Translations under genes and position numbers: made by a program
Shown: piece after piece, positions 1-39,571 of the stretch
Layout of the letters: each line of letters opens with the position of its first letter
How positions within the stretch are numbered: the stretch's first letter is position 1
Notes under the pieces: generated by a model
What the model was told of the DNA's origin: nothing
Seen by the model: the letters and a program-made list of their open reading frames with translations, nothing else
The model's database searches: none
NCBI RefSeq assembly: GCF_003018255.1
Contig: NZ_CP027440.1
Strand: one strand, 5' to 3'
DNA from: Escherichia coli
GTDB lineage: Bacteria > Pseudomonadota > Gammaproteobacteria > Enterobacterales > Enterobacteriaceae
DNA: 64,000 nucleotides

Positions 1-959
1 CGCTGACCGGTTTACCCGATAACTTTACCGTACAGGCATTTGTGATCCTGCTTTCCGGCGGCATTTTTTGCCTAAGCTCGTGGATTGGTATCAACAACGG
101 TTTGCAACGTCTAAGCAAAATGGTTGGCTGGGGCGCGTTCCTGCTGCCATTACTGGTGCTGATTGTCGGTCCAACCGAATTTATTACCAACAGCATCATC
201 AATGCCATCGGCCTGACCACGCAAAACTTCCTGCAAATGAGCTTATTCACCGATCCGCTTGGCGATGGTTCATTTACCCGCAACTGGACCGTTTTCTACT
301 GGCTGTGGTGGATCTCATACACGCCTGGCGTAGCAATGTTTGTCACCCGCGTTTCCCGCGGTCGTAAGATTAAAGAAGTTATCTGGGGACTGATCCTCGG
401 CAGCACCGTCGGTTGCTGGTTCTTCTTCGGCGTAATGGAAAGCTATGCCATTCACCAGTTTATCAATGGCGTAATCAACGTCCCACAGGTGCTGGAAACA
501 CTGGGCGGCGAGACAGCTGTGCAGCAAGTTCTGATGTCGTTGCCAGCCGGTAAATTGTTCCTCGCCGCATACCTGGGCGTGATGATTATTTTCCTTGCCT
601 CGCATATGGATGCGGTGGCCTACACCATGGCGGCAACCAGTACGCGTAATCTCCAGGAAGGTGACGATCCTGACCGTGGGCTGCGTCTTTTCTGGTGCGT
701 GGTAATTACCCTGATCCCGCTTTCAATTCTTTTCACTGGCGCGTCGCTGGAAACGATGAAAACCACCGTCGTACTCACAGCCCTTCCGTTCCTCGTCATT
801 TTACTGGTGAAAGTCGGCGGATTTATTCGCTGGCTGAAACAGGATTACGCCGACATTCCGGCTCATCATGTTGAACATTATCTCCCGCAGACACCGGTTG
901 AAGTCCTGGAAAAAACGCCAGTGCTCCCTGCGGGAACCGTATTCAAAGGCGACAACTGA
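1..959 (+). CDS. yeaV: BCCT-family transporter YeaV, C-terminal part (5' end lies outside window)
   Basis: Open frame runs from window edge (codon phase starting at nt 3) to stop at 959; hydrophobic TM-rich translation matching betT/caiT-like YeaV; followed by yeaW-yeaX as in E. coli. Confidence 0.85.
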
Positions 960-990
960 GCGCCATCATCCTAACGATAAAGGTATCCCT

Positions 991-2115
991 ATGAGCAATC
1001 TGAGCCCTGACTTTGTACTACCCGAAAATTTTTGCGCTAACCCGCAAGAGGCGTGGACCATTCCTGCCCGTTTTTATACCGATCAGAACGCCTTTGAACA
1101 CGAAAAAGAGAACGTCTTCGCCAAAAGCTGGATTTGCGTCGCTCACAGCAGCGAACTGGCGAATGCCAATGATTATGTGACGCGTGAGATCATTGGCGAA
1201 AGCATTGTGCTGGTACGCGGTCGTGATAAGGTTTTGCGCGCGTTCTATAACGTGTGTCCGCACCGTGGTCATCAGTTGTTGAGCGGCGAAGGGAAAGCGA
1301 AAAATGTGATTACCTGCCCGTATCACGCATGGGCATTCAAACTCGATGGCAACCTGGCCCATGCACGTAACTGCGAAAACGTCGCCAATTTCGATAGCGA
1401 CAAAGCGCAACTGGTTCCGGTGCGTCTGGAAGAATATGCCGGATTCGTCTTCATCAACATGGACCCTAACGCCACCAGCGTAGAAGATCAGTTACCCGGT
1501 CTGGGCGCGAAAGTGCTGGAAGCCTGCCCGGAAGTCCACGATCTGAAACTGGCGGCCCGCTTTACCACCCGCACGCCTGCCAACTGGAAGAACATTGTCG
1601 ATAACTATCTCGAGTGCTATCACTGTGGTCCGGCGCATCCAGGTTTCTCCGACTCCGTACAGGTTGATCGTTACTGGCACACCATGCACGGTAACTGGAC
1701 GCTGCAATACGGTTTCGCCAAACCGTCAGAACAGTCTTTCAAATTCGAAGAGGGCACGGATGCGGCATTCCACGGTTTCTGGCTGTGGCCGTGCACGATG
1801 CTTAACGTCACACCGATCAAAGGGATGATGACGGTCATTTATGAATTCCCGGTGGATTCTGAAACTACCCTGCAAAACTACGATATTTACTTCACCAATG
1901 AAGAGTTAACCGACGAGCAAAAATCGCTGATTGAGTGGTATCGCGATGTGTTCCGTCCGGAAGATTTACGTCTGGTTGAAAGCGTACAGAAAGGGCTGAA
2001 ATCGCGTGGCTATCGTGGTCAGGGGCGCATCATGGCCGACAGTAGCGGTAGCGGAATTTCCGAACATGGTATCGCCCATTTCCATAATCTGCTGGCGCAG
2101 GTGTTTAAGGACTAA
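991..2115 (+). CDS. yeaW: Rieske-type carnitine monooxygenase oxygenase subunit (CntA homolog), 374 aa
   Basis: ATG at 991 inside longer ORF 868..2115; Rieske motif CPHRGHQ...CPYHAW in translation; length matches YeaW. Confidence 0.92.
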   Translation: MSNLSPDFVLPENFCANPQEAWTIPARFYTDQNAFEHEKENVFAKSWICVAHSSELANANDYVTREIIGESIVLVRGRDKVLRAFYNVCPHRGHQLLSGEGKAKNVITCPYHAWAFKLDGNLAHARNCENVANFDSDKAQLVPVRLEEYAGFVFINMDPNATSVEDQLPGLGAKVLEACPEVHDLKLAARFTTRTPANWKNIVDNYLECYHCGPAHPGFSDSVQVDRYWHTMHGNWTLQYGFAKPSEQSFKFEEGTDAAFHGFWLWPCTMLNVTPIKGMMTVIYEFPVDSETTLQNYDIYFTNEELTDEQKSLIEWYRDVFRPEDLRLVESVQKGLKSRGYRGQGRIMADSSGSGISEHGIAHFHNLLAQVFKD

Positions 2116-2170
2116 TGACATCGGCGGCGGTATTTTCCGCCGCTGGGCTGATTTTTGATGGAGTACAGCA

Positions 2171-3136
2171 ATGTCAGACTATCAAATGTTTGAAGTACAG
2201 GTGAGTCAGGTGGAACCGCTTACCGAACAGGTGAAACGCTTCACGCTGGTGGCAACCGATGGCAAACCGCTGCCTGCGTTCACCGGAGGAAGTCACATCA
2301 TAGTGCAGATGAGCGATGGTGATAACCAGTACAGCAATGCGTATTCACTACTGAGTTCACCGCATAACACCTCTAGTTATCAGATTGCCGTTCGACTGGA
2401 GGAAAACTCGCGCGGCGGTTCCCGCTTTTTGCATCAGCAGGTAAAAGTGGGCGATCGGTTAACGATTTCAACGCCTAATAACCTGTTTGCGCTAATTCCC
2501 TCGGCCAGAAAGCATCTGTTTATCGCGGGCGGTATTGGTATCACCCCTTTCCTGTCGCACCTGGCAGAGTTGCAATACAGCGACGTCGACTGGCAGCTAC
2601 ATTACTGCACGCGAAATCCAGAAAGTTGCGCATTTCGTGATGAGCTAGTCCAGCATCCACAGGCTGAGAAAGTTCACTTACATCACTCATCAACCGGAAC
2701 ACGACTGGAATTAGCGCGATTATTGGCGGATATCGAACCTGGCACACATGTTTATACCTGTGGCCCCGAGGCGCTAAATGAAGCGGTAAGAAGTGAAGCT
2801 GCGCGTCTGAACATCGCCGCCGATACGCTGCACTTTGAGCAATTTGCTATCGAAGACAAAACCGGCGATGCATTTACCCTGGTGCTTGCCCGTTCCGGAA
2901 AAGAGTTTGTGGTGCCGGAAGAGATGACTATTTTGCAGGTTATTGAAAATAATAAAGCAGCGAAAGTGGAATGTTTATGTCGTGAAGGGGTATGCGGAAC
3001 CTGCGAAACGGCAATACTGGAAGGTGAAGCTGACCATCGGGATCAGTATTTTAGCGATGAAGAGCGTGCCAGCCAGCAAAGTATGTTGATCTGTTGTTCG
3101 CGCGCGAAGGGTAAACGCCTGGTGTTGGATTTGTAG
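2171..3136 (+). CDS. yeaX: Carnitine monooxygenase reductase subunit (ferredoxin-NAD reductase with C-terminal 2Fe-2S ferredoxin domain), 321 aa
   Basis: ORF 2171..3136; C-terminal CxxGxCxxC ferredoxin motif (CREGVCGTC); adjacent to yeaW. Confidence 0.92.
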   Translation: MSDYQMFEVQVSQVEPLTEQVKRFTLVATDGKPLPAFTGGSHIIVQMSDGDNQYSNAYSLLSSPHNTSSYQIAVRLEENSRGGSRFLHQQVKVGDRLTISTPNNLFALIPSARKHLFIAGGIGITPFLSHLAELQYSDVDWQLHYCTRNPESCAFRDELVQHPQAEKVHLHHSSTGTRLELARLLADIEPGTHVYTCGPEALNEAVRSEAARLNIAADTLHFEQFAIEDKTGDAFTLVLARSGKEFVVPEEMTILQVIENNKAAKVECLCREGVCGTCETAILEGEADHRDQYFSDEERASQQSMLICCSRAKGKRLVLDL

Positions 3137-3140
3137 TTTG

Positions 3141-3177
3141 CCGAAGCCGGACTGAGCGCGCCCAGTCCGGCTTCGGA
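3141..3177. terminator. GC-rich 14-bp inverted repeat between convergent yeaX and rnd (likely bidirectional terminator)
   Basis: ccgaagccggactg ... cagtccggcttcgg palindrome directly after the yeaX stop codon. Confidence 0.5.
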
Positions 3178-3182
3178 AGATT

Positions 3183-4310
3183 TTACTGCGGATATTCCTG
3201 CAATAAATTGTGTAATGCTTCCGCCATCAGCTCACCACGCCAGCCGGAAATCAGCTCCGGCAAATTGTTCTGCGGTTTCAGTTTCCAGTGCCAGTTCAGC
3301 AGTTGGTTGATTTGCCGACGCGATGCCAGCAATTCGGCGCTGATCTTGTGCGTTTCGCTCACGTCAGTAATCAGCGACTTAATCGCTTTAAACGCTTTAC
3401 GATAACCCGGCATGTCCATCAGGTTAAGCATCGGCTGCGGTAAGGCCTCTTCCGGCAATGCCTGCGCTTTTTCCACCAGCGCCAGCAGCGTTTTACCGTG
3501 AAAGCGGATTTCGCTACCGGATAAGCCCAGGCTGTCCAGTTCGCCTAAACTTCCCGGCATATAACGCGCTACGGACCACAAATGCTCTTCACGCACGACA
3601 AAGTTCACTGCCAGATCGCGCTCCCGCGCCTTGCGCAGTCGCCAGTCGGCTAACAGTTGCAGACAGGCCAGTTGGCGTGTGCGTAACTGCCAGGCATTGG
3701 TGATATCACGCCAGGCATCTTCCGGAGCAACGACTTCCTGACGACGCATTTGCATCAGGCGGCATTCATCCAGCGCCGCAGGTAGCCAGCCGGAGGCCTC
3801 CGTTTCTACCATAAGCTTTGCGGTGATCGGTAACAGATACCAGACATCCGCCGCTGCGTATTCACACTGACGTTCGGTCAGCGGTCTGGCCAGCCAGTCG
3901 GTGCGCGATTCACTCTTGTCCAGCGTAACGCCGGAATACTCTTCCACCATGGAAGCGAAACCCCATGACATCGGGCGTCCGCAGAAGGCAGCAAGGATTT
4001 GCGTGTCAATCAAGGGTTGTGGTAATTCGCCAAAGACATTGAGGAACACTTCCAGATCTTCACTGCCCGCATGGAGAAATTTTGTGATGGACGGATCGCG
4101 CAGGATCGCTTTCAGCGGTGACCAGTCAGAGATCCCGAGGGGATCAATTAGCGCCAGATGCTCACCATCAAAAAGTTGAATTAGACCCAGTTGCGGGTAA
4201 TAGGTGCGCGTACGAACAAATTCAGTATCCAGGGCTATCGCCGGAAAGGCACGGACGGCTTCACACAAAGAAGCCAGCGCATCGTCCGTGGTAATCATTT
4301 GGTAATTCAA
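3183..4310 (-). CDS. rnd: Ribonuclease D, 375 aa
   Basis: ORF 3183..4310 minus; translation matches RNase D (3'-5' exonuclease plus HRDC domains); length exact. Confidence 0.95.
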   Translation of the reverse strand: MNYQMITTDDALASLCEAVRAFPAIALDTEFVRTRTYYPQLGLIQLFDGEHLALIDPLGISDWSPLKAILRDPSITKFLHAGSEDLEVFLNVFGELPQPLIDTQILAAFCGRPMSWGFASMVEEYSGVTLDKSESRTDWLARPLTERQCEYAAADVWYLLPITAKLMVETEASGWLPAALDECRLMQMRRQEVVAPEDAWRDITNAWQLRTRQLACLQLLADWRLRKARERDLAVNFVVREEHLWSVARYMPGSLGELDSLGLSGSEIRFHGKTLLALVEKAQALPEEALPQPMLNLMDMPGYRKAFKAIKSLITDVSETHKISAELLASRRQINQLLNWHWKLKPQNNLPELISGWRGELMAEALHNLLQEYPQ

Positions 4311-4379
4311 ATTGTATTCTCTTTAGTGGGCGTCAAAAAAAACGCCGGATTAACCGGCGTCTGACGACTGACTTAACGC

Positions 4380-6065
4380 TCAGGCTTTATTGTCCACTTT
4401 GCCGCGCGCTTCGTCACGTAATTCTCGTCGCAAAATTTTTCCGACGTTAGATTTCGGTAACTCATCACGAAACTCCACCAGCTTCGGTACTTTGTAGCCC
4501 GTGAGCTGACGGCGGCAAAAAGTCACCAGTGACTCTTCGGTAAGTGATGGATCTTTTTTCACAACGAAGATTTTCACCGCTTCGCCACTGGAGCCAGAAG
4601 GTACGCCAACAGCCGCGACTTCCTGTACGCCAGGATGCTGCATGACGACATCTTCAATCTCGTTGGGATAGACGTTAAAACCGGAAACCAGAATCATGTC
4701 TTTTTTACGATCGACAATACGCAGGAATCCTTCTTCATCCATCACCGCGATGTCGCCAGTGTGTAACCAGCCATTTTTGATGATTTCATCGGTAGCATCC
4801 GGACGCTGCCAGTAACCCAGCATCACCTGCGGTCCTTTGACACAAAGCTCACCTGGTTGACCCGGTGGTACTTCGTTGTCGTCGTCATCCACCAGTTTGG
4901 CTTCCGTCGACGGCACCGGCAAACCGATGCTACCACTATGATAATCAATATCATACGGGTTAACGCTGACCAGCGGCGCACACTCGGTCAGGCCATAACC
5001 TTCCAGCAGATACTGCCCTGTCAGTTTCACCCAACGTTCTGCCACCACTTGCTGAACAGGCATCCCACCGCCTGCGGAAAGGTGCAGACTGGAGAAATCC
5101 AGCTGCTGGAACTCTTTATTGTTCAGCAACGCATTGAATAAGGTGTTAACGCCAGTGATAGCGGTAAACGGATATTTCGCTAACTCTTTTACCAACCCTG
5201 GAATATCGCGCGGGTTAGTGATAAGCAGGTTCTGCCCACCCAGTTCGATAAACAGCAGGCAGTTAATGGTCAGTGCAAAAATGTGATAAAGCGGCAGCGC
5301 CGTCACCACCAGCTCTTTGCCCGGATGCAACAGCGGACCATAGGTCGCGTTAACCTGTTCCAGGTTCGCCAGCATATTGCGGTGAGTCAGCATCGCGCCT
5401 TTCGCCACACCAGTGGTACCGCCGGTGTATTGCAGGAAAGCTAAATCTTCCGGCACCAGTTCGGGTTTGACGTACTGCATCCGGTAGCCGTTGTGCAGGG
5501 CGCTACGAAATGAAATGGCATCTGGCAGATGGTATTTCGGCACCAGACGCTTGATGTATTTAACAACAAAATTGACTACCGTGCCTTTTGCCGTAGATAG
5601 CTGATCGCCCATACGGGTCAGAATTACGTGCTGAACGGCGGTTTTATCAACCACTTTTTCCAGAGTGTGGGCAAAGTTAGACACGATAACAATCGCCGAT
5701 GCGCCGCTATCGTTAAGCTGATGCTCAAGTTCACGCGGGGTATACAACGGGTTAACGTTTACGACAATCATCCCGGCACGCAAAATGCCAAACAGCGCCA
5801 CCGGATATTGCAATAAATTAGGCATCATCAACGCAACGCGATCGCCTTTCTTCAGTCCCAACCCTTGTTGCAAATAAGCGGCAAACGCGCGACTGCGTTC
5901 TTCCAGTTTGCGGAAGGTCATCACCTCCCCCATATTCACAAACGCGGGTTGATCGGCGTAGCGCGCGACCGACTGCTCAAACATATCTACCAGAGATTGA
6001 TAACGGTCAGGGTTGATCTCCGTCGGAACGTCCGCGGGATAACGGTTAAGCCAAACCTTCTTCAA
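4380..6065 (-). CDS. fadD: Long-chain fatty-acid CoA ligase FadD, 561 aa, TTG start
   Basis: ORF 4380..6131 minus; known N-terminus [10 protein letters not shown] begins at the TTG codon at 6063-6065; AMP-binding motif [12 protein letters not shown] present. Confidence 0.93.
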
Positions 6066-6137
6066 TTCTTCACCTCTAAAATGCGTGTTCGTCGTCATCG
6101 CAACCCCAAATGATATACATGCCGTTAACATAATATT

Positions 6138-6154
6138 AACTCATCATACCAGCT
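6138..6154. promoter_or_regulatory. FadR operator O1 of fadD promoter
   Basis: Reverse complement reads AGCTGGTATGATGAGTT, matching the FadR box as I recall it, 73-89 bp upstream of fadD start. Confidence 0.55.
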
Positions 6155-6223
6155 TGATAATTACCCAACGAAAAGGTTGCGAAGCGCGTCACTATTTATT
6201 TTTATCTTTACCGTAAGAATGCA

Positions 6224-6258
6224 GAAACAGCGGACCAGCCGCTGTTTCTTTTTCTTTA
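6224..6258. promoter_or_regulatory. FadR operator O2 embedded in a perfect 10-bp stem hairpin with T-tract (also probable yeaY 3' terminator)
   Basis: gaaacagcgg-accag-ccgctgtttc followed by tttttcttt; reverse complement contains GGCTGGTCCGCTGTTTC. Confidence 0.5.
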
Positions 6259-6269
6259 AAAACAAGCAA

Positions 6270-6851
6270 TTATTCAGTTACAACTGTTTGTACTCTCGCG
6301 GGACCGGGATTATACCAGCCCCATCCACCGTAGCCATAGGGCCAGCCACGACCGCCATAAAACCATGGATCAATCGGCTGAGGCGGCATAATCACCTGCT
6401 GGGTTAAATGCCAACGTTTGTAACCCGTTACTTGCATCACCATAAATTTATAGGGCGTGTTGCCGATTTTGCCGTCAACCGCACCGGTGATTGGCCCAAC
6501 TACCGTAACCAGTTGTCCACGGAAATCTACCGGGTCCAGAAAACCGTTCACATCGGCATAAATGCGCCCGCGTGAAGGTTCTCCCAAAGTTGGTCTGGCT
6601 CCGCTGTCCAGCGGTACGGTAGCAATTTCCAGGCGGGTTTTCCCTTGCTGGTTTTGTACCGCAACCACTTTGCCACCAAAGCGTGCCTCCTGACCAACGT
6701 ACAGCTGCGGCGCACTCATCACCCGAACTAAATCTTGTTGCGGCGTGGGACTGCTGCCTTTAATGGCGTCCGGCACAGTAACACAACCGCTCAGCATTAG
6801 CGCAAACGTACCTGCCAGTATGCCTTTGATAACATTCTTTTGAACCGCCAT
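6270..6851 (-). CDS. yeaY: Slp-family outer-membrane lipoprotein YeaY, 193 aa
   Basis: ORF 6270..6851 minus; lipoprotein signal with LSGC lipobox; Slp-like sequence. Confidence 0.9.
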
Positions 6852-23377: not shown

Positions 23378-23468
23378 GACAACTCCGGCAGGATACTAAA
23401 GGCCGCAAGTGTAACGCGAATCACGCGGCGGGCAAATATCCGAACGACTGGAGCGAAGATAAAGCAAA

Positions 23469-23497
23469 GTAAAAAGCCTCGCATTCGACGAGGCTTT
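23469..23497 (-). terminator. cspC intrinsic terminator
   Basis: Minus-strand RNA forms gcctcg / cgaggc stem followed by uuuuu. Confidence 0.7.
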
Positions 23498-23542
23498 ATA
23501 GCGAGATTGAAGCGTATTCACACTTCAGATCAGTGGATTCGA

Positions 23543-23752
23543 TCAGATAGCTGTTACGTTAACAGCTGCCGGACCTTTCTGACCGTCCTGAATTTCGAAC
23601 TCAACGTTCTGACCTTCAGCCAGAGTTTTGAAACCATTACCCTGGATAGCAGAGAAGTGTACGAACACGTCTTTGCTGCCATCAGCCGGAGTAATGAAGC
23701 CAAAACCTTTAGACTCGTTGAACCACTTAACCTGACCTTTAATCTTTGCCAT
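23543..23752 (-). CDS. cspC: Cold-shock-domain protein CspC, 69 aa
   Basis: ORF 23543..23752 minus; [20 protein letters not shown] with RNP motifs. Confidence 0.96.
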
Positions 23753-23764
23753 TTGAAAAATTCC

Positions 23765-23908
23765 TTAGATTGTTTTCTTCGCCCGCAGGCATAACATAGA
23801 TAAAACTGACACATTACTGCATGAGGCACCAATATAAGGCTCGGCAGAGAAGCGGTATTCAACGTCAACGTGTTTACTCAGGACTTCTTTACTGAAAATG
23901 CCACACAT
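23765..23908 (-). CDS. yobF: Small stress-induced protein YobF, 47 aa (co-transcribed with cspC)
   Basis: Manual minus-strand translation [47 protein letters not shown]; ends 12 nt before cspC start; below ORF-track cut-off. Confidence 0.85.
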
Positions 23909-24532
23909 AAACAGAACTGTACCTCGTTTAACCCGAAATCTGTTATCACATACAACGTTAATTATGGCAAGCCATTTTTAAACATGTCTCGATCAGACGC
24001 ACAAATCTCGATACGTCTTCCACTTTTTTTGCACACTTATGCAACGGAATACGCGCCGATATATCATTGTGCTTAACCTTGCCAGTTCAGGCAGATACTT
24101 AAACTGACGTATTTTCTAACATAGTTCAATAAGTTCAGTTGTTCCAGGCCAGTGGGAGAAGTTATTACATAGTGCGTGCAATATCACATTTTCTGCTATG
24201 CAATGAATAAAAAGTTATATCACTTTTTCTCATAAAACAGTCAGTTAACGGCTATCGATCACCCCAAAGAGAAGTCAATCGCCAAAGGTATTGTAAATTT
24301 AAAATAAGAAAAATTGATGAATGCGCAAAAAAATCAAGAGAGAAACGTTTCGCTAATAAATAATACCACGCTTAATCACAAATCCGATGTAAACATCCTA
24401 ATAAATTAATGGGCTAAATATCTTTTTCTGATATCCCGTTACGCAAATAAATAATATGATAATTATTTGAAGTCAGACCAGAGTTTTAATTTGAAGCAGT
24501 TGCACCATGACAGTGCGTATAATCAGGATGAA

Positions 24533-31947: not shown

Positions 31948-32445
31948 TTATCCTGCGACGCTCGCAAAGAATTTTTTGTAATCCGTCGTTGCAAGCACCT
32001 TTTCAAGCTGTGCCACAAGCTGACGTAAGCCTTGCTCGTCCTCGTCTGTAAAGCGACCGAAGACGGTACTATCGATGTCGAGAACACCAATAATCTGATT
32101 TTTCACCACCAGCGGCAGAACAATTTCAGAATTACTCGTCGCATCACAGGCAATATGCCCGTCAAACGCATGAACATCCTCGATACGCTGCACTTGATTG
32201 CGGGCAACCGCAGTGCCGCACACGCCGCGCCCGACGGGTATCCGGACACAGGCAATTTTGCCCTGAAATGGTCCGAGCACCAGTGTATCGTCCTCAAGCA
32301 AATAAAAACCTGCCCAGTTTACGTCAGTGAGACGCTCATATAACAACGCACTGGTGTTCGCAAGCGTTGCCAGAAAACTGGTTTCTCCTGCCATCAGCGC
32401 GTTAAAGTCGCGATTTAAATCCGCGTAAAATTCTGTTTTGTTCAT
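31948..32445 (-). CDS. msrC: Free methionine-(R)-sulfoxide reductase MsrC (YebR), GAF domain, 165 aa
   Basis: Internal ATG (MNKTEFYADL) of ORF 31948..32499. Confidence 0.88.
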   Translation of the reverse strand: MNKTEFYADLNRDFNALMAGETSFLATLANTSALLYERLTDVNWAGFYLLEDDTLVLGPFQGKIACVRIPVGRGVCGTAVARNQVQRIEDVHAFDGHIACDATSNSEIVLPLVVKNQIIGVLDIDSTVFGRFTDEDEQGLRQLVAQLEKVLATTDYKKFFASVAG

Positions 32446-32574
32446 TATATAATCACTTGGTTGTCTTACCAGGAACTGCCAGCCTATTAAAATAAGCATT
32501 AAATGCGTTAATGCTCAAGATCATTCCCATCATGGGTTAAGATTAATGTTAATTCTTATTACATTTGGCACGTC

Positions 32575-33858
32575 ATGGCTCTTAACACACCACAAATTAC
32601 GCCGACAAAAAAGATAACAGTGAGGGCTATCGGTGAGGAACTGCCGCGTGGTGATTACCAACGTTGCCCGCAATGTGACATGCTGTTTAGCCTGCCCGAG
32701 ATAAATTCTCATCAAAGTGCCTATTGTCCGCGCTGTCAGGCAAAAATTCGTGACGGGCGCGACTGGTCGCTAACGCGCCTGGCGGCAATGGCCTTCACCA
32801 TGCTGTTGCTGATGCCGTTTGCCTGGGGCGAACCGCTGTTGCATATCTGGCTGTTAGGCATTCGTATTGACGCCAACGTCATGCAAGGCATCTGGCAAAT
32901 GACCAAACAGGGCGATGCGATAACGGGATCAATGGTCTTTTTTTGCGTTATTGGTGCCCCCCTCATTCTGGTGACCTCCATAGCTTATTTATGGTTTGGT
33001 AACCGACTGGGAATGAATCTACGTCCGGTACTGCTGATGCTTGAGCGACTGAAAGAGTGGGTAATGCTCGATATCTACCTGGTCGGCATTGGCGTTGCTT
33101 CTATAAAGGTACAGGATTATGCCCATATCCAGGCGGGTGTCGGCTTGTTCTCTTTTGTGGCGTTAGTGATTTTAACGACGGTGACGTTGTCACATCTCAA
33201 TGTCGAAGAACTGTGGGAGCGATTTTATCCACAGCGCCCCGCTACGTGTAGAGACGAGAAACTCCGTGTCTGTCTTGGGTGCCATTTTACCGGCTATCCT
33301 GATCAGCGTGGTCGCTGCCCGCGTTGCCATATCCCGCTACGCCTGCGTCGCCGTCATAGTCTGCAAAAATGCTGGGCGGCGCTGTTAGCGTCAATCGTTT
33401 TATTGTTACCTGCCAACCTGTTGCCTATTTCTATCATTTATCTGAATGGTGGCCGGCAGGAAGATACAATTCTTTCCGGGATTATGTCGCTGGCAAGTAG
33501 CAACATTGCGGTCGCCGGAATCGTGTTTATCGCCAGTATTCTGGTACCGTTTACTAAAGTGATCGTCATGTTCACTTTACTGTTGAGTATTCATTTTAAA
33601 TGCCAGCAAGGTTTACGCACACGCATTCTGTTACTGCGGATGGTGACCTGGATTGGTCGCTGGTCGATGCTCGACCTGTTTGTCATATCTTTAACCATGT
33701 CGCTGATTAATCGCGATCAGATCCTCGCTTTTACTATGGGACCGGCTGCGTTTTATTTCGGCGCAGCGGTAATTTTGACTATTCTTGCTGTGGAATGGCT
33801 GGACAGCCGCTTACTTTGGGATGCACATGAGTCAGGAAACGCCCGCTTCGACGACTGA
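32575..33858 (+). CDS. letA: Lipophilic envelope-spanning tunnel protein A (LetA/YebS, PqiA-like), 427 aa
   Basis: ORF 32575..33858; two zinc-ribbon-like CxxC pairs and paired TM modules. Confidence 0.92.
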
Positions 33859-36460
33859 AGCGCAGATTAAAAATAAACGCCGTATCTCACCTTTCTGGCT
33901 GCTGCCGTTCATCGCGCTAATGATTGCCGGTTGGCTGATTTGGGATAGTTATCAGGACCGGGGTAATACCGTCACCATCGACTTTATGTCGGCGGATGGT
34001 ATTGTCCCGGGCCGCACCCCTGTTCGTTATCAGGGCGTTGAAGTCGGAACTGTGCAGGATATCAGCCTGAGCGACGATCTTCGTAAGATTGAAGTCAAGG
34101 TCAGCATCAAGTCTGATATGAAAGATGCGCTGCGCGAAGAGACACAGTTCTGGCTGGTGACGCCAAAGGCCTCACTGGCAGGTGTCTCCGGGCTGGATGC
34201 CCTCGTCGGTGGTAACTATATCGGCATGATGCCAGGTAAAGGTAAAGAGCAGGATCACTTTGTCGCACTCGATACCCAACCGAAGTATCGGCTGGATAAT
34301 GGCGATCTGATGATCCACCTGCAAGCCCCCGATCTCGGTTCACTGAACAGCGGTTCATTGGTCTATTTCCGTAAGATCCCGGTGGGTAAAGTCTACGACT
34401 ATGCCATCAATCCCAATAAGCAAGGCGTGGTGATTGATGTCCTGATCGAGCGGCGTTTTACCGACCTGGTGAAAAAAGGTAGCCGTTTCTGGAACGTTTC
34501 CGGCGTTGATGCCAACGTCAGTATCAGTGGCGCGAAGGTGAAACTGGAAAGTCTGGCGGCACTGGTTAACGGTGCGATTGCCTTCGATTCACCTGAAGAG
34601 TCGAAACCTGCCGAGGCGGAAGATACCTTTGGTCTGTATGAAGATCTCGCCCACAGCCAGCGTGGCGTAATAATAAAACTGGAACTGCCGAGTGGGGCCG
34701 GATTAACCGCCGACTCGACGCCGTTAATGTATCAGGGGCTGGAAGTCGGACAGCTGACTAAACTGGATTTAAATCCTGGTGGTAAAGTCACCGGAGAAAT
34801 GACCGTTGATCCCAGCGTCGTTACGCTGTTACGGGAAAATACCCGCATCGAATTACGTAATCCGAAATTATCCCTTAGCGATGCCAATCTCAGCGCCCTG
34901 CTGACCGGAAAAACCTTTGAGTTGGTGCCCGGCGATGGTGAGCCACGCAAAGAGTTCGTTGTTGTGCCAGGCGAAAAAGCCCTGCTACAAGAGCCGGATG
35001 TTCTGACACTGACCCTGACAGCACCAGAAAGTTACGGTATTGATGCTGGTCAGCCGCTCATTCTCCACGGTGTGCAAGTAGGCCAGGTTATTGATCGTAA
35101 ACTCACCAGCAAAGGCGTTACCTTTACCGTCGCCATCGAGCCTCAGCATCGCGAACTGGTAAAAGGCGATAGCAAATTTGTCGTCAACAGCCGTGTCGAC
35201 GTGAAGGTGGGGCTGGATGGCGTTGAGTTTCTCGGTGCCAGCGCCTCAGAATGGATTAACGGCGGGATACGTATTCTGCCGGGCGATAAAGGCGAGATGA
35301 AAGCCAGCTATCCACTGTATGCCAATCTGGAAAAAGCGCTGGAGAACAGCCTTAGCGATTTACCCACCACAACCGTAAGTTTGAGTGCAGAGACGCTGCC
35401 GGATGTGCAGGCAGGATCGGTAGTGCTGTACCGTAAATTTGAAGTTGGTGAAGTTATTACTGTGCGTCCGCGAGCTAACGCGTTTGATATCGATCTGCAT
35501 ATTAAGCCGGAGTATCGCAACCTTCTGACCAGCAACAGCGTGTTCTGGGCAGAAGGTGGGGCGAAAGTTCAGCTAAATGGTAGTGGTCTGACCGTACAGG
35601 CATCCCCGCTCTCCAGAGCATTAAAGGGGGCTATTAGCTTCGATAACCTCAGCGGTGCCAGCGCCAGTCAGCGTAAAGGCGACAAGCGTATTCTGTATGC
35701 TTCCGAAACAGCGGCCCGTGCGGTTGGCGGGCAAATTACGCTTCACGCTTTCGATGCCGGAAAACTGGCGGTCGGGATGCCAATTCGCTATCTCGGTATT
35801 GATATCGGGCAAATCCAGACGCTGGATCTGATTACCGCGCGCAATGAAGTACAGGCAAAGGCGGTACTTTACCCGGAATATGTCCAGACCTTTGCACGCG
35901 GTGGTACACGCTTCTCAGTGGTCACACCGCAAATTTCGGCAGCTGGCGTTGAGCATCTTGATACTATCCTCCAGCCGTATATCAACGTCGAACCAGGCCG
36001 GGGCAATCCTCGGCGCGACTTTGAATTACAAGAGGCTACCATAACTGATTCGCGTTACCTGGATGGCTTAAGCATTATTGTTGAAGCGCCGGAAGCCGGT
36101 TCGTTAGGCATCGGTACGCCTGTGCTGTTCCGTGGTCTGGAAGTCGGTACGGTTACCGGAATGACGCTGGGGACATTGTCAGATCGCGTGATGATTGCGA
36201 TGCGCATCAGTAAACGCTATCAACACCTGGTGCGTAACAATTCCGTCTTCTGGTTGGCATCGGGTTACAGTCTGGACTTTGGTCTGACGGGCGGCGTAGT
36301 GAAAACCGGCACCTTTAACCAGTTTATCCGTGGCGGCATCGCCTTCGCCACGCCTCCGGGTACGCCACTGGCACCGAAAGCCCAGGAAGGCAAGCACTTC
36401 CTGTTGCAGGAAAGTGAACCGAAAGAGTGGCGTGAATGGGGAACTGCGCTTCCCAAATAA
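33827..36460 (+). CDS. letB: Lipophilic envelope-spanning tunnel protein B (LetB/YebT), seven tandem MCE domains, 877 aa
   Basis: Internal ATG (MSQETPAST) of ORF 33785..36460; start overlaps letA 3' end by 32 nt; repeated MCE-like segments. Confidence 0.92.
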
Positions 36461-36539
36461 TGCCCACTGCTCCGGCGTGCCTGCGCCGGAGCGTTTATGC
36501 TAAACTGCGCGCCTGTTTTTTTGCCAGTGGTATATGCTC

Positions 36540-37979
36540 GTGGCCCAACACACCGTTTATTTCCCGGACGCCTTTCTGACACAAATGCGCGAAGCGATGC
36601 CTTCGACGCTCTCTTTTGATGATTTTCTTGCCGCCTGTCAGCGCCCGTTGCGCCGCAGCATTCGCGTTAATACGCTGAAAACCTCCGTTGCTGATTTCCT
36701 GCAATTAACTGCTCCTTATGGCTGGACGCTTACGCCAATTCCGTGGTGTGAAGAAGGTTTCTGGATTGAACGCGACAGTGAAGATGCATTGCCGTTGGGT
36801 AGTACCGCCGAGCATTTAAGCGGCCTGTTTTATATTCAGGAAGCCAGTTCAATGTTGCCTGTTGCCGCCTTGTTTGCTGACGGTAATGCACCACAGCGGG
36901 TGATGGATGTCGCTGCCGCGCCCGGCTCCAAAACGACGCAAATTGCCGCGCGGATGAATAACGAAGGGGCAATCCTTGCCAATGAGTTTTCCGCCAGTCG
37001 GGTAAAAGTGTTACATGCCAATATCAGCCGCTGTGGCATCAGTAATGTTGCGCTCACGCATTTTGATGGCCGCGTATTTGGTGCGGCAGTGCCAGAAATG
37101 TTCGATGCCATTTTGCTGGACGCTCCCTGCTCCGGCGAAGGCGTGGTGCGTAAAGATCCCGATGCGCTAAAAAACTGGTCACCAGAAAGCAATCAGGAAA
37201 TCGCAGCGACCCAACGGGAACTGATCGACAGCGCCTTTCATGCATTACGTCCTGGCGGTACGCTGGTTTACTCGACCTGTACCTTAAACCGGGAAGAAAA
37301 CGAAGCCGTTTGCCTGTGGCTGAAAGAGACTTATCCCGACGCAGTAGAGTTTTTACCGCTTGGCGATCTCTTCCCTGGTGCAAACAAGGCGCTGACCGAG
37401 GAAGGCTTTTTGCATGTTTTCCCACAAATTTACGACTGCGAAGGCTTCTTCGTTGCTCGTCTGCGTAAAACTCAGGCGATTCCCGCCTTACCCACCCCAA
37501 AATACAAAGTGGGCAATTTCCCGTTCAGCCCGGTGAAAGATCGCGAAGCCGGACAAATTCGTCAGGCGGCTGCAAGTGTTGGCTTAAACTGGGATGAAAA
37601 CCTGCGACTCTGGCAGCGTGACAAAGAACTGTGGTTGTTCCCGGTGGGCATTGAAGCCCTGATCGGTAAAGTCCGATTTTCTCGCTTGGGGATTAAACTT
37701 GCCGAAACGCACAACAAAGGTTATCGCTGGCAGCATGAAGCCGTTATTGCCCTTGCCTCCCCCGACAATGTGAACGCTTTTGAACTGACACCGCAGGAAG
37801 CGGAAGAGTGGTATCGCGGGCGCGATGTTTACCCGCAAGCCGCGCCAGTAGCGGATGATGTATTGGTTACTTTCCAGCATCAGCCGATTGGTTTAGCCAA
37901 ACGGATTGGTTCGCGACTGAAAAACAGCTACCCGCGTGAACTGGTGCGCGATGGGAAACTTTTTACCGGTAACGCCTGA
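36540..37979 (+). CDS. rsmF: 16S rRNA m5C1407 methyltransferase RsmF (YebU), 479 aa, GTG start
   Basis: ORF 36534..37979; known N-terminus MAQHTVYF begins at GTG 36540; SAM-MTase motifs ([18 protein letters not shown]). Confidence 0.9.
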
Positions 37980-39322: not shown

Positions 39323-39571
39323 TAACAAGAATGTTAAAAAACGCTGGACGCAGACAGTAGAGTGTGTGTTATGGTTGACTATAAAGTCAGCGAAGGGAAT
39401 GCTTCTGGCTTTTAACAGATAAAAAGAGACCGAACACGATTCCTGTATTCGGTCCAGGGAAATGGCTCTTGGGAGAGAGCCGTGCGCTAAAAGTTGGCAT
39501 TAATGCAGGCTTAGTTGCCTTGCTCTTTAAGAATAGATGACGACGCCAGGTTTTCCAGTTTGCGTGCAAAA
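39323..39571 (+). ncRNA. ryeA: RyeA (SraC) sRNA, antisense partner of SdsR (boundaries approximate)
   Basis: Non-coding pphA-yebY spacer; plus-strand transcript position inferred from recall of the ryeA/ryeB overlapping arrangement. Confidence 0.5.
39421..39523 (-). ncRNA. sdsR: SdsR (RyeB) sigma-S-dependent sRNA
   Basis: Minus strand reads GCAAGGCAACTAAGCCTGCATTAATGCCAACTTTTAGCGCACGGCTCTCTCCCAAGAGCCATTTCCCTGGACCGAATACAGGAATCGTGTTCGGTCTCTTTTT, ending in a terminator hairpin plus U-tract. Confidence 0.8.

Follow-up and report, generated by a model that had tools for sequence, protein, structure and literature searches.

In the pqiA-pqiB-pqiC operon of Escherichia coli, as in letAB, the gene for a two-module membrane protein of the PqiA family lies directly upstream of a gene for a multi-MCE protein. 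The junctions differ: pqiA and pqiB are separated by a 4-nt gap and do not overlap, unlike letA and letB, and the common 4-nt overlap is found between pqiB and pqiC. PqiB, which has a lipoprotein partner, contains three MCE domains, whereas LetB has seven. Gene pairs with short overlaps (4-nt ATGA or 1-nt, associated with termination-reinitiation) share with letAB the arrangement of co-directional operon genes whose products form one complex, but the letAB overlap is 32 nt rather than 1-4 nt, the letB start is used in vitro without upstream translation, and the products are needed at 6:1 and not at about 1:1. The coat-lysis pair of phage MS2 (-50 nt) is similar to letAB in that the downstream start lies tens of nucleotides before the upstream stop and in another frame. 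A review describes initiation of MS2 lysis as ribosome scanning from the coat stop after termination; in letAB, by contrast, LetB is the more abundant product and its start works alone in vitro. The letAB operon, its structure and its 32-bp overlap are already known from RefSeq and from the 2026 Nature cryo-EM paper, which reports that letA and letB "overlap by 32 bp" and describes one LetA bound to a homohexameric LetB tunnel (PDB 9n8w/9n8x, 6 LetB : 1 LetA).

The window (the whole stretch of 64,000 nt that was analysed) carries the chromosomal letAB (yebST) operon of E. coli, laid out as follows.

31948-32445, minus strand: msrC (yebR), divergent neighbour, free methionine-(R)-sulfoxide reductase (Pfam GAF match; RefSeq, collinear with K-12)
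32446-32574, no strand: msrC-letA intergenic region, 129 nt, with a candidate sigma-70-like match at 32466-32493 (plus strand, TTACCA-16-TAAAAT, consensus scan)
32575-33858, plus strand: letA (yebS), 427 aa, ATG to TGA (33856-33858), two PqiA modules and four CxxC zinc-ribbon motifs (ORF, Pfam, PDB comparison)
33827-36460, plus strand: letB (yebT), 877 aa from ATG 33827 (ORF, Pfam, PDB 9n8w chain B, INRI-seq start)
36468-36493, plus strand: terminator-like GC-rich hairpin of 11 pairs (consensus scan), beginning 8 nt past the letB stop

The initial annotation gave the identities of both genes, their start and stop coordinates and the 32-nt overlap exactly, as judged by the ORFs and RefSeq, and it rightly called the system known (RefSeq annotation and the published overlap statement). 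The locus is that of K-12 letA-letB, with the same overlap, two PqiA modules and seven MCE domains; the K-12 RefSeq coordinates (letA 1916258-1917541, letB 1917510-1920143; b1833-b1834) are collinear with those of the window, and the RefSeq annotation of the closest genome has the 32-nt overlap as well. Only strain-level polymorphisms separate the two: letA differs at 25 nucleotides and letB at 79, which gives R225C in LetA and S35G and H388Q in LetB; from -60 to +80 around the junction, every base is the same as in K-12. The initial annotation had also singled out the divergent msrC. The gene is indeed divergent and lies 129 nt upstream of letA, but this is ordinary conserved synteny: the order proQ-msrC-letA-letB-rsmF recurs in loci whose LetB is just 35-38% identical to that of E. 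coli. Promoter matches in the msrC-letA intergenic region were at chance level by number in the consensus scan. An internal promoter for letB alone was considered and set aside, as the sigma-70-like matches (4 vs 4.6 expected) were also at chance level. The hairpin at 36468-36493 probably marks where the letAB transcript ends, although its T tract is weak. Matches to LetA on plasmids (tblastn) turned out to be chromosomes filed as plasmids only.

LetA matches Pfam PqiA (PF04403) with E = 1e-81 over two stretches and carries CxxC in two pairs (residues 31/51 and 233/248), which form two tetracysteine zinc-ribbon motifs; the LetAB cryo-EM paper defines this motif as CxxC-Xn-CxxC, one ahead of each membrane module. 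As in the PqiA family generally, a multi-MCE gene is placed directly 3' of letA and here overlaps it. LetA differs from PDB 9n8w chain A at one residue (R225C), and LetB differs from the solved 9n8w chain at two. LetB begins with a short cytoplasmic tail followed by a single N-terminal transmembrane anchor, and the rest of the chain is given over to the MCE repeats that the initial annotation had noticed along its length; a domain scan bears this out, with Pfam MlaD (MCE, PF02470) matching at E = 1.6e-84 over seven stretches. Repeat starts were located from sequence (residues 48, 161, 281, 393, 516, 636 and 748), which gives the approximate boundaries listed here, each based on the Pfam MlaD count and the sequence.

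33866-33961, plus strand: LetB residues 14-45, positive KNKRR patch and single N-terminal TM anchor (sequence; TM helix model in the cryo-EM paper)
33968-34306, plus strand: MCE repeat 1, residues 48-160
34307-34666, plus strand: MCE repeat 2, residues 161-280
34667-35002, plus strand: MCE repeat 3, residues 281-392
35003-35371, plus strand: MCE repeat 4, residues 393-515
35372-35731, plus strand: MCE repeat 5, residues 516-635
35732-36067, plus strand: MCE repeat 6, residues 636-747
36068-36457, plus strand: MCE repeat 7 and C-terminal segment, residues 748-877

LetA is the inner-membrane component, and six LetB chains would form a seven-ring MCE tunnel spanning the periplasm. The cryo-EM paper models the TM helices of LetB as residues 14-45, and its density lacks LetA 419-427 and LetB 1-13. 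Chain B of PDB 9n8w spans residues 1-877 and opens with MSQETP.

The junction itself contains three elements to which we refer below.

33796-33809, plus strand: small 5-bp hairpin TGGCTggacAGCCG inside letA, 18 nt upstream of the letB ATG, invariant in 18 species
33817-33822, plus strand: Shine-Dalgarno-like TGGGAT, codons LetA Trp415-Asp416, predicted anti-SD duplex, ending 4 nt before the ATG
33827-33858, plus strand: dual-coding overlap, LetA 418-427 and stop, LetB 1-11 in the +1 frame (ORFs, species comparison, wobble diversity)

Relative to letA, letB reads the shared 32 nt in the +1 frame, and the letA stop codon begins 29 nt downstream of ATG 33827. An internal ATG with an open frame ten codons on has a chance of about (61/64)^10, roughly 0.6, and is not improbable. 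It is the retention of the overlap throughout the order, not its existence, that exceeds chance. Among 81 Enterobacterales sequences the overlap is 32 nt in 67 (ending in TGA, TAA or TAG), 29-50 nt in 11 and absent in 3, being missing only in Pectobacterium and Dickeya, and at distant loci the gene-finder calls give 4-56 nt; where letA is split, its halves overlap each other too. The arrangement is ancient and is exactly 32 nt in most Enterobacterales. The initial annotation described the overlap as unusually long. It is longish, since a review puts more than 80% of overlapping pairs below 30 bp, but it had already been annotated and was in print.

Both frames of the overlap are under constraint. 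Wobble sites in the overlap have a mean diversity of 0.175, vs 0.490 in the flanks (Mann-Whitney p = 7.5e-7), and 8 of the 17 wobble sites in the overlap are invariant vs 8 of 137 in the flanks (Fisher p = 3e-5); the species are phylogenetically related, so these p-values compare sites and not independent lineages. Split by frame, diversity in the overlap is 0.216 at LetB sites and 0.139 at LetA sites, while the full flanks give 0.52 (letB only) and 0.46 (letA only), and diversity is back to normal directly past the letA stop. Low wobble diversity of this kind is what is expected if selection acts on both frames. The overlap would code just for flexible cytoplasmic tails, namely the C-terminus of LetA and the N-terminus of LetB ahead of its membrane anchor, and this is probably why so long an overlap is tolerated. 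The locus is a clean natural case of a long, ancient, same-strand overlap tolerated via two disordered tails. A practical consequence is that mutating or recoding the last ten letA codons alters the N-terminus of LetB and its start site, a problem that the authors of the LetAB study sidestepped by refactoring the operon.

We consider it likely that letB starts at 33827, that the two tails are dual-coded and that letB is translated mainly by direct ribosome loading. Of the three possible in-frame starts, ATG 33827 is the sole one that is kept, with ATG present in 77 of 80 Enterobacterales species. Published INRI-seq, which maps starts in a cell-free system, places a peak within the 15 +/- 3 nt window of the annotated letB start in five of five replicates. 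This peak measures 30-69 CPM, compared with 6-8 CPM at the letA start even though there is 9 times as much letA template (541 vs 59 CPM); the assay uses truncated RNAs, and the height of its peaks may not be proportional to synthesis in vivo. The letB RNA in this experiment spans -30 to +153 only and so lacks the letA start. The Ribo-RET column within INRI-seq Table S2 has no peak for either gene; in vivo start-site or N-terminal peptide data for LetB were not found, the TRAINSPOTTER supplements making no mention of yebT/letB. Ribosomes most likely load directly at the letB start, and would do so via the weak SD-like UGGGAU supplied by the Trp415-Asp416 codons of letA, the only SD-like element of letB, on mRNA that appears to have no special structure. 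Its predicted SD pairing is -4.0 kcal/mol vs -1.5 for letA's own start, and the WD motif with its 4-nt gap to the start is kept in 76 of 81 Enterobacterales sequences. In vitro the letB site appears intrinsically far stronger than that of letA, in keeping with a complex that needs six LetB for every LetA. We suggest that the letB start is seldom blocked by elongating ribosomes because letA would rarely be translated. Re-initiation after letA may add slightly but is probably not the main route. At this locus, a 1:6 complex would go together with an upstream start site that is weak and an internal one that is stronger.

The folding of the junction is unremarkable. The initial annotation had raised the possibility of initiation from within a structured region, and this is not borne out: relative to shuffled sequence the MFE z is 0.17 (124 nt) and 0.58 (70 nt), and a consensus fold of 18 species has no conserved structure over the letB start, which is left unpaired. 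No covariation is seen in the small hairpin at 33796-33809, and the comparison therefore speaks neither for nor against its formation. A further hairpin around the letA stop in E. coli (CGCUUCG...UGAAGCG) was discarded, as it is lost in other genera. No Rfam family matched 32300-36700, even with the threshold relaxed to E <= 1.

As the other possibility, the initial annotation had taken the overlap to imply translational coupling. Under this reading LetB would be made mainly by ribosomes that finish letA; these would either return to the ATG, some 29 nt before the stop (termination-reinitiation), or open the mRNA for a new ribosome. The idea has some attraction, as LetA and LetB are subunits of one complex, the SD-like element of letB is weak, and a letA stop near or overlapping the letB start is a family rule (4-56 nt, and seen again between split letA halves); selection for coupling would yield just such a recurrent close stop/start pattern. 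Re-initiation in MS2 coat-lysis, according to a review, reaches a start 50 nt upstream of the stop. However, the letB start works in vitro without letA translation, and the junction has no inhibitory structure that needs unfolding, so that the letB start is not sequestered. The start and stop are not within a few nucleotides of each other but 29 nt apart, and in synthetic-operon work cited in a review coupling falls with overlap length and is gone by -25 nt. Re-initiation yields no more than one LetB for each LetA, against a ratio of 6:1 in the complex. The refactored operon, in which the genes do not overlap, worked well enough to be used as the wild-type reference of a selection-based mutational scan, Pectobacterium and Dickeya manage without the overlap, and the paralogous pqiA-pqiB pair has a gap. 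Both genes go unmentioned in the supplements of Mori 2021 and PLoS Comput Biol 2022, where LetA:LetB synthesis or abundance in vivo was sought. We conclude that coupling as the main source of LetB is unlikely, and we prefer direct loading.

A more speculative extension, to which we attach only a small probability, sees in the overlap more than a passive relic: it treats the near-invariant 40-nt junction as a tuned element that sets the 6:1 LetB:LetA synthesis ratio, perhaps through the binding of a factor such as CsrA, and adds a functional contact between the LetA tail and the MxQETP of LetB. Its parts may be the Trp-Asp codons in the role of an SD, the GGA motif on either side of the ATG and, further upstream, the small invariant hairpin. 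The contact may involve the conserved G421, N422, F/Y425 and D427 of LetA and the N-terminal MxQETP of LetB, which are unseen by cryo-EM.

We regard an error in the annotated LetB start, or the use of more than one start, as very improbable. The letB frame has stops at 33770 and 33776, after which the possible starts are TTG 33785 (891 aa), ATG 33821 (MHMSQ..., 879 aa) and ATG 33827; the first two are in frame with no stop intervening, so that initiation at either of them, or at both ATGs, could be envisaged, and the 879-aa form is chosen by some gene callers. ATG 33821, 6 nt upstream of the annotated start, is present in 54 of 81 sequences, but only in these; Klebsiella, Salmonella enterica subsp. 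arizonae and even one E. coli (L037) lack it. It also falls within the SD-like element and so is left without an SD of its own. Many genera have a stop ahead of TTG 33785, and this codon is impossible as a start in Serratia, Yersinia, Rahnella and Hafnia, whose frame opens only 12 nt upstream. INRI-seq has its peak at the annotated start, and its Table S3 lists no alternative. Downstream, ATG, GTG and TTG are absent from the letB frame between 33830 and Met32 (33920), and this next in-frame ATG is located within the TM helix. The annotated start is thus backed by comparative and cell-free initiation data and is trustworthy for annotation pipelines.

We are equally doubtful that the junction is near-invariant as a cis-regulatory RNA site, instead of or besides dual coding. 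The candidate would be the GGA pair UGGGAUG and CAGGAAA, 16 nt apart, which flanks the ATG as in CsrA-repressed starts. All 67 species with a 32-nt overlap share the same bases at +6 to +12 (CAGGAAA) and at -10 to -6, and the invariance includes positions that are synonymous in one frame. However, it is the Trp-Asp and Gly codons of LetA that dictate the GGA motifs, L043, L069, L072, Pectobacterium, Dickeya, Brenneria and Edwardsiella have lost AGGA, and dual coding by itself explains the invariance. The search for an Rfam match was negative, and a link between CsrA and letB/yebT was not found in the literature searched.

A programmed +1 frameshift in the overlap that fuses LetA to LetB fits the frame relationship and the topology, which permits fusion as the LetA C-terminus and LetB N-terminus are both cytoplasmic, but it has next to no likelihood: in the stretch read (33827-33858) no slippery or hungry-codon site precedes the stop (context GAC GAC TGA), and the SD-like AGGA is 19 nt from the stop, rather than the roughly 3 nt of the corresponding element in the prfB frameshift. 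The published complex, moreover, consists of separate LetA and LetB chains, with LetB from Met1. We note that a 987-aa homologue (P0001), considered as a natural LetA-LetB fusion, proved to be an internal duplication in LetB.

The letA-letB overlap is confirmed and was already a known feature; our analysis adds support for the annotated letB start, shows how deeply the overlap is conserved and that it corresponds to two disordered tails, and finds a signature of constraint on both frames. In the window, the letA frame is an ATG-to-TGA ORF of 427 aa (32575-33858). The letB frame, +1 relative to letA, contains stops at 33770 and 33776 and is thereafter open until 36460, with candidate starts at TTG 33785, ATG 33821 and ATG 33827; from the last of these it encodes 877 aa and has 33827-33858 (32 nt) in common with letA. 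The coordinates in the initial annotation were exact, and its identification of the known letA-letB system is right by Pfam, K-12, RefSeq and the cryo-EM entry of the LetAB complex (9n8w). Pfam finds two PqiA stretches in LetA and, as the repeated segments described earlier had suggested, seven MlaD/MCE stretches in LetB, whose repeat units begin at residues 48, 161, 281, 393, 516, 636 and 748. The letAB segment is matched in 5424/5426 complete E. coli genomes (95-99.6% identity, annotated yebS/yebT), and RefSeq likewise annotates the 32-nt overlap in K-12 (letA 1916258-1917541, letB 1917510-1920143) and in the closest genome. K-12 is collinear with the window at letAB and identical from -60 to +80 of the letB ATG; one residue of LetA and two of LetB differ from both K-12 and 9n8w chains A and B. 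Relative to K-12, these are LetA R225C (window 33247-33249), an extra cysteine eight residues before the CLGC zinc-ribbon motif, and LetB S35G (TM helix) and H388Q; the nucleotide divergence of letB is ~3%.

The first in-frame ATG, GTG or TTG after 33827 is Met32 (33920), which lies within the membrane anchor; letB must therefore start at or before 33827, where every candidate falls within letA. A scan of species-representative genomes gave 80 Enterobacterales loci (LetB identity 60-99%), in 77 of which an ATG aligns with 33827; the remaining three have an ATG 3-9 nt upstream of the aligned position. Only 54/81 sequences (the window plus these species) carry the ATG at -6, which Klebsiella, Salmonella enterica subsp. 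arizonae and one E. coli lack. Use of the TTG at -42 (33785) is ruled out for Serratia, Yersinia, Rahnella and Hafnia, whose letB frame does not open until -12. Experimental data come from INRI-seq, in which a synthetic RNA for each E. coli gene (30 nt of native upstream sequence and the first 153 nt of the CDS) is translated in PURExpress and arrested by retapamulin (Hör et al., NAR 2022, PMC9825163). The annotated yebT start (1917510) gave 29.8, 49.1, 35.1, 61.8 and 69.1 CPM and was scored as identified, with 6.3-7.9 CPM at the yebS start; the table of non-annotated starts lists none for yebT, and both yebS and yebT have a value of zero in the column for in vivo Ribo-RET (PMC9825163).

The best-supported reading is that letB initiates autonomously at a moderately strong internal site, an autonomy seen in vitro only. 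The sole SD-like element upstream of 33827, UGGGAU at 33817-33822, is formed by the LetA Trp415-Asp416 codons, and its predicted pairing (-4.0 kcal/mol) compares with -1.5 for letA's own start. The INRI-seq signal at the letB start is ~6.7-fold that of letA from a template ~9-fold less abundant (Table S4: 541 CPM for letA, 59 for letB). Per template the difference is therefore about 60-fold, although peak heights are not necessarily proportional to template amount. We suggest that ribosomes would initiate letB on their own within letA, and that the site would be left largely unblocked by letA ribosomes because letA is itself weakly translated. Autonomous initiation fits the complex of six LetB and one LetA described in the LetAB cryo-EM paper, a connection that we infer. 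Coupling of LetB translation to letA, which the overlap had been taken to imply, we regard as a minority possibility. According to a review of coupling (PMC12548453), over 80% of overlapping gene pairs have <30 bp in common; coupling in synthetic operons weakened as overlaps lengthened and had vanished at -25 nt, although MS2 coat-lysis re-initiates across -50 nt. The reading that the overlap implies coupling is not supported; in INRI-seq the letB start is used in an RNA with only 30 nt of upstream sequence. The proposal of a start within a structured region is also unsupported, as folding of the junction is not unusual (MFE z-score 0.17 for 124 nt, 0.58 for 70 nt) and the start region stays unpaired in a consensus fold built from 18 species.

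The one structure predicted by that fold is a small invariant hairpin at -31 to -18 that shows no covariation. It is a 5-bp stem (33796-33809, TGGCT-ggac-AGCCG) within letA, 18 nt upstream of the letB ATG and invariant in the 18 divergent species; its loop wobble sites vary, and the sole degenerate wobble site of the stem (AGC, Ser) is constant. A terminator-like scan also picks it up; lacking covariation, it is unproven. Rfam has no match in 32300-36700, even at E <= 1, and promoter-like matches to a consensus within letA are at chance level only. Two GGA motifs 16 nt apart flank the letB start (33817-33838; UGGGAUG at -10 to -4, CAGGAAA at +6 to +12) and resemble CsrA-bound start sites; both are dictated by LetA codons, and no paper in the collection searched connects CsrA to letB.

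Overlap lengths were counted in all 81 sequences, one locus (L064) being parsed by hand.

letA-letB junctions in the window and 80 Enterobacterales species
Overlap of exactly 32 nt: 67/81 (stop TGA 54, TAA 7, TAG 6)
Overlap of 44 nt: 3/81
Overlap of 50 nt: 2/81
Overlap of 41 nt: 2/81
Overlap of 29 nt: 2/81
Overlap of 35 nt: 1/81
Overlap of 38 nt: 1/81
No overlap, 2-nt spacer: 2/81 (Pectobacterium)
No overlap, 16-nt spacer: 1/81 (Dickeya)

The conserved part of LetA always closes with RL(L/I/M)WD, and the letB ATG starts 4 nt past the Asp codon in 76/81 sequences. Distant loci (LetB 35-54% identical) have overlaps of 56, 23, 14, 11, 8 and 4 nt by gene-caller coordinates; proQ lies upstream in most, and msrC and rsmF are also neighbours in some. 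In three distant relatives (L089 1317-2523, L090 1269-2511, L091 1287-2508) letA is two single-PqiA-domain genes, the second overlapping letB by 8-23 nt; in such split genes the two parts share 8-20 nt, again by gene-caller coordinates. The paralogous pqiA-pqiB pair of K-12, in contrast to letA-letB with its 32-nt overlap, has a 4-nt gap. Two loci (L085 2501-5170, L086 1399-4068) encode an 889-aa LetB homologue (43% identity) without letA upstream, preceded by a lipid A acyltransferase-family gene (PF03279) and with luxS downstream. A metagenome contig (ENA) encodes a K-12-type LetB of 987 aa (P0001) in which 110 aa of the ring 5/6 segment are internally duplicated in tandem (LTVQASPLS...GGTRFS is present twice); it may represent an eight-ring variant that exists in nature, an artefact of assembly or a construct made in the laboratory.

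The 32-nt overlap is published knowledge beyond mere annotation; the 2026 LetAB cryo-EM paper states that the two genes overlap by 32 bp, and its selection-based mutational scan took a refactored operon without the overlap as its functional wild-type reference. According to the same paper, the density lacks LetA residues 419-427 and LetB residues 1-13, and the LetB TM helices comprise residues 14-45. The overlap codes for LetA 418-427 and LetB 1-11, and its encoded segments are exactly the two cytoplasmic tails unresolved by cryo-EM. In the 67 species whose overlap is 32 nt, nucleotide diversity at third-codon positions averages 0.46 in the letA-only and 0.52 in the letB-only flank, and 0.216 (LetB positions) and 0.139 (LetA positions) within the overlap. 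Pooled wobble diversity is 0.175 in the overlap vs 0.490 in the flanks (Mann-Whitney p = 7.5e-7, comparing sites among related species), and 8/17 vs 8/137 wobble sites are invariant (Fisher p = 3e-5, for sites compared across lineages that are not independent). Diversity returns to ~0.5 directly past the letA stop (+32 onward), which argues against a general early-coding effect. At LetB codons 7 (A/T/N/S) and 9 (P/Q/T/K/S) the amino acid varies and the third base, which is the first base of the LetA F/Y425 and D427 codons, respectively, is constant; LetA third positions +7, +10 and +16 are constant and set LetB Q3, E4 and P6. These sites point to selection on a single frame at each, and within the 32-nt clade both frames appear constrained, judging from sequence comparison. 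Outside it neither tail motif is retained, and in Dickeya the LetA tail is only two residues long (WDND*); the tails are therefore not universally required.

Eight nt past the letB stop is a strong GC-rich hairpin (36468-36493; 11 pairs, 8 of them G-C; weak T tract), probably the letAB terminator, dividing the operon from rsmF. The latter has three adjoining in-frame start candidates (ATG 36534, TTG 36537, GTG 36540); RefSeq chooses 36540, and INRI-seq has no peak at this annotated start and lists no alternative. Rfam matches at gathering score comprise the RyeA/SdsR sense-antisense sRNA pair (39417-39561), the cspA-type thermoregulator 5' UTR at cspC (23468-23928) and sroD (4336-4421). Collinearity of the window with K-12 MG1655 is limited to ~6.5 kb to ~39.5 kb; ungapped identity falls to ~26% in 1-6500 and ~39500-64000, a drop that points to indels at either end when compared with K-12.
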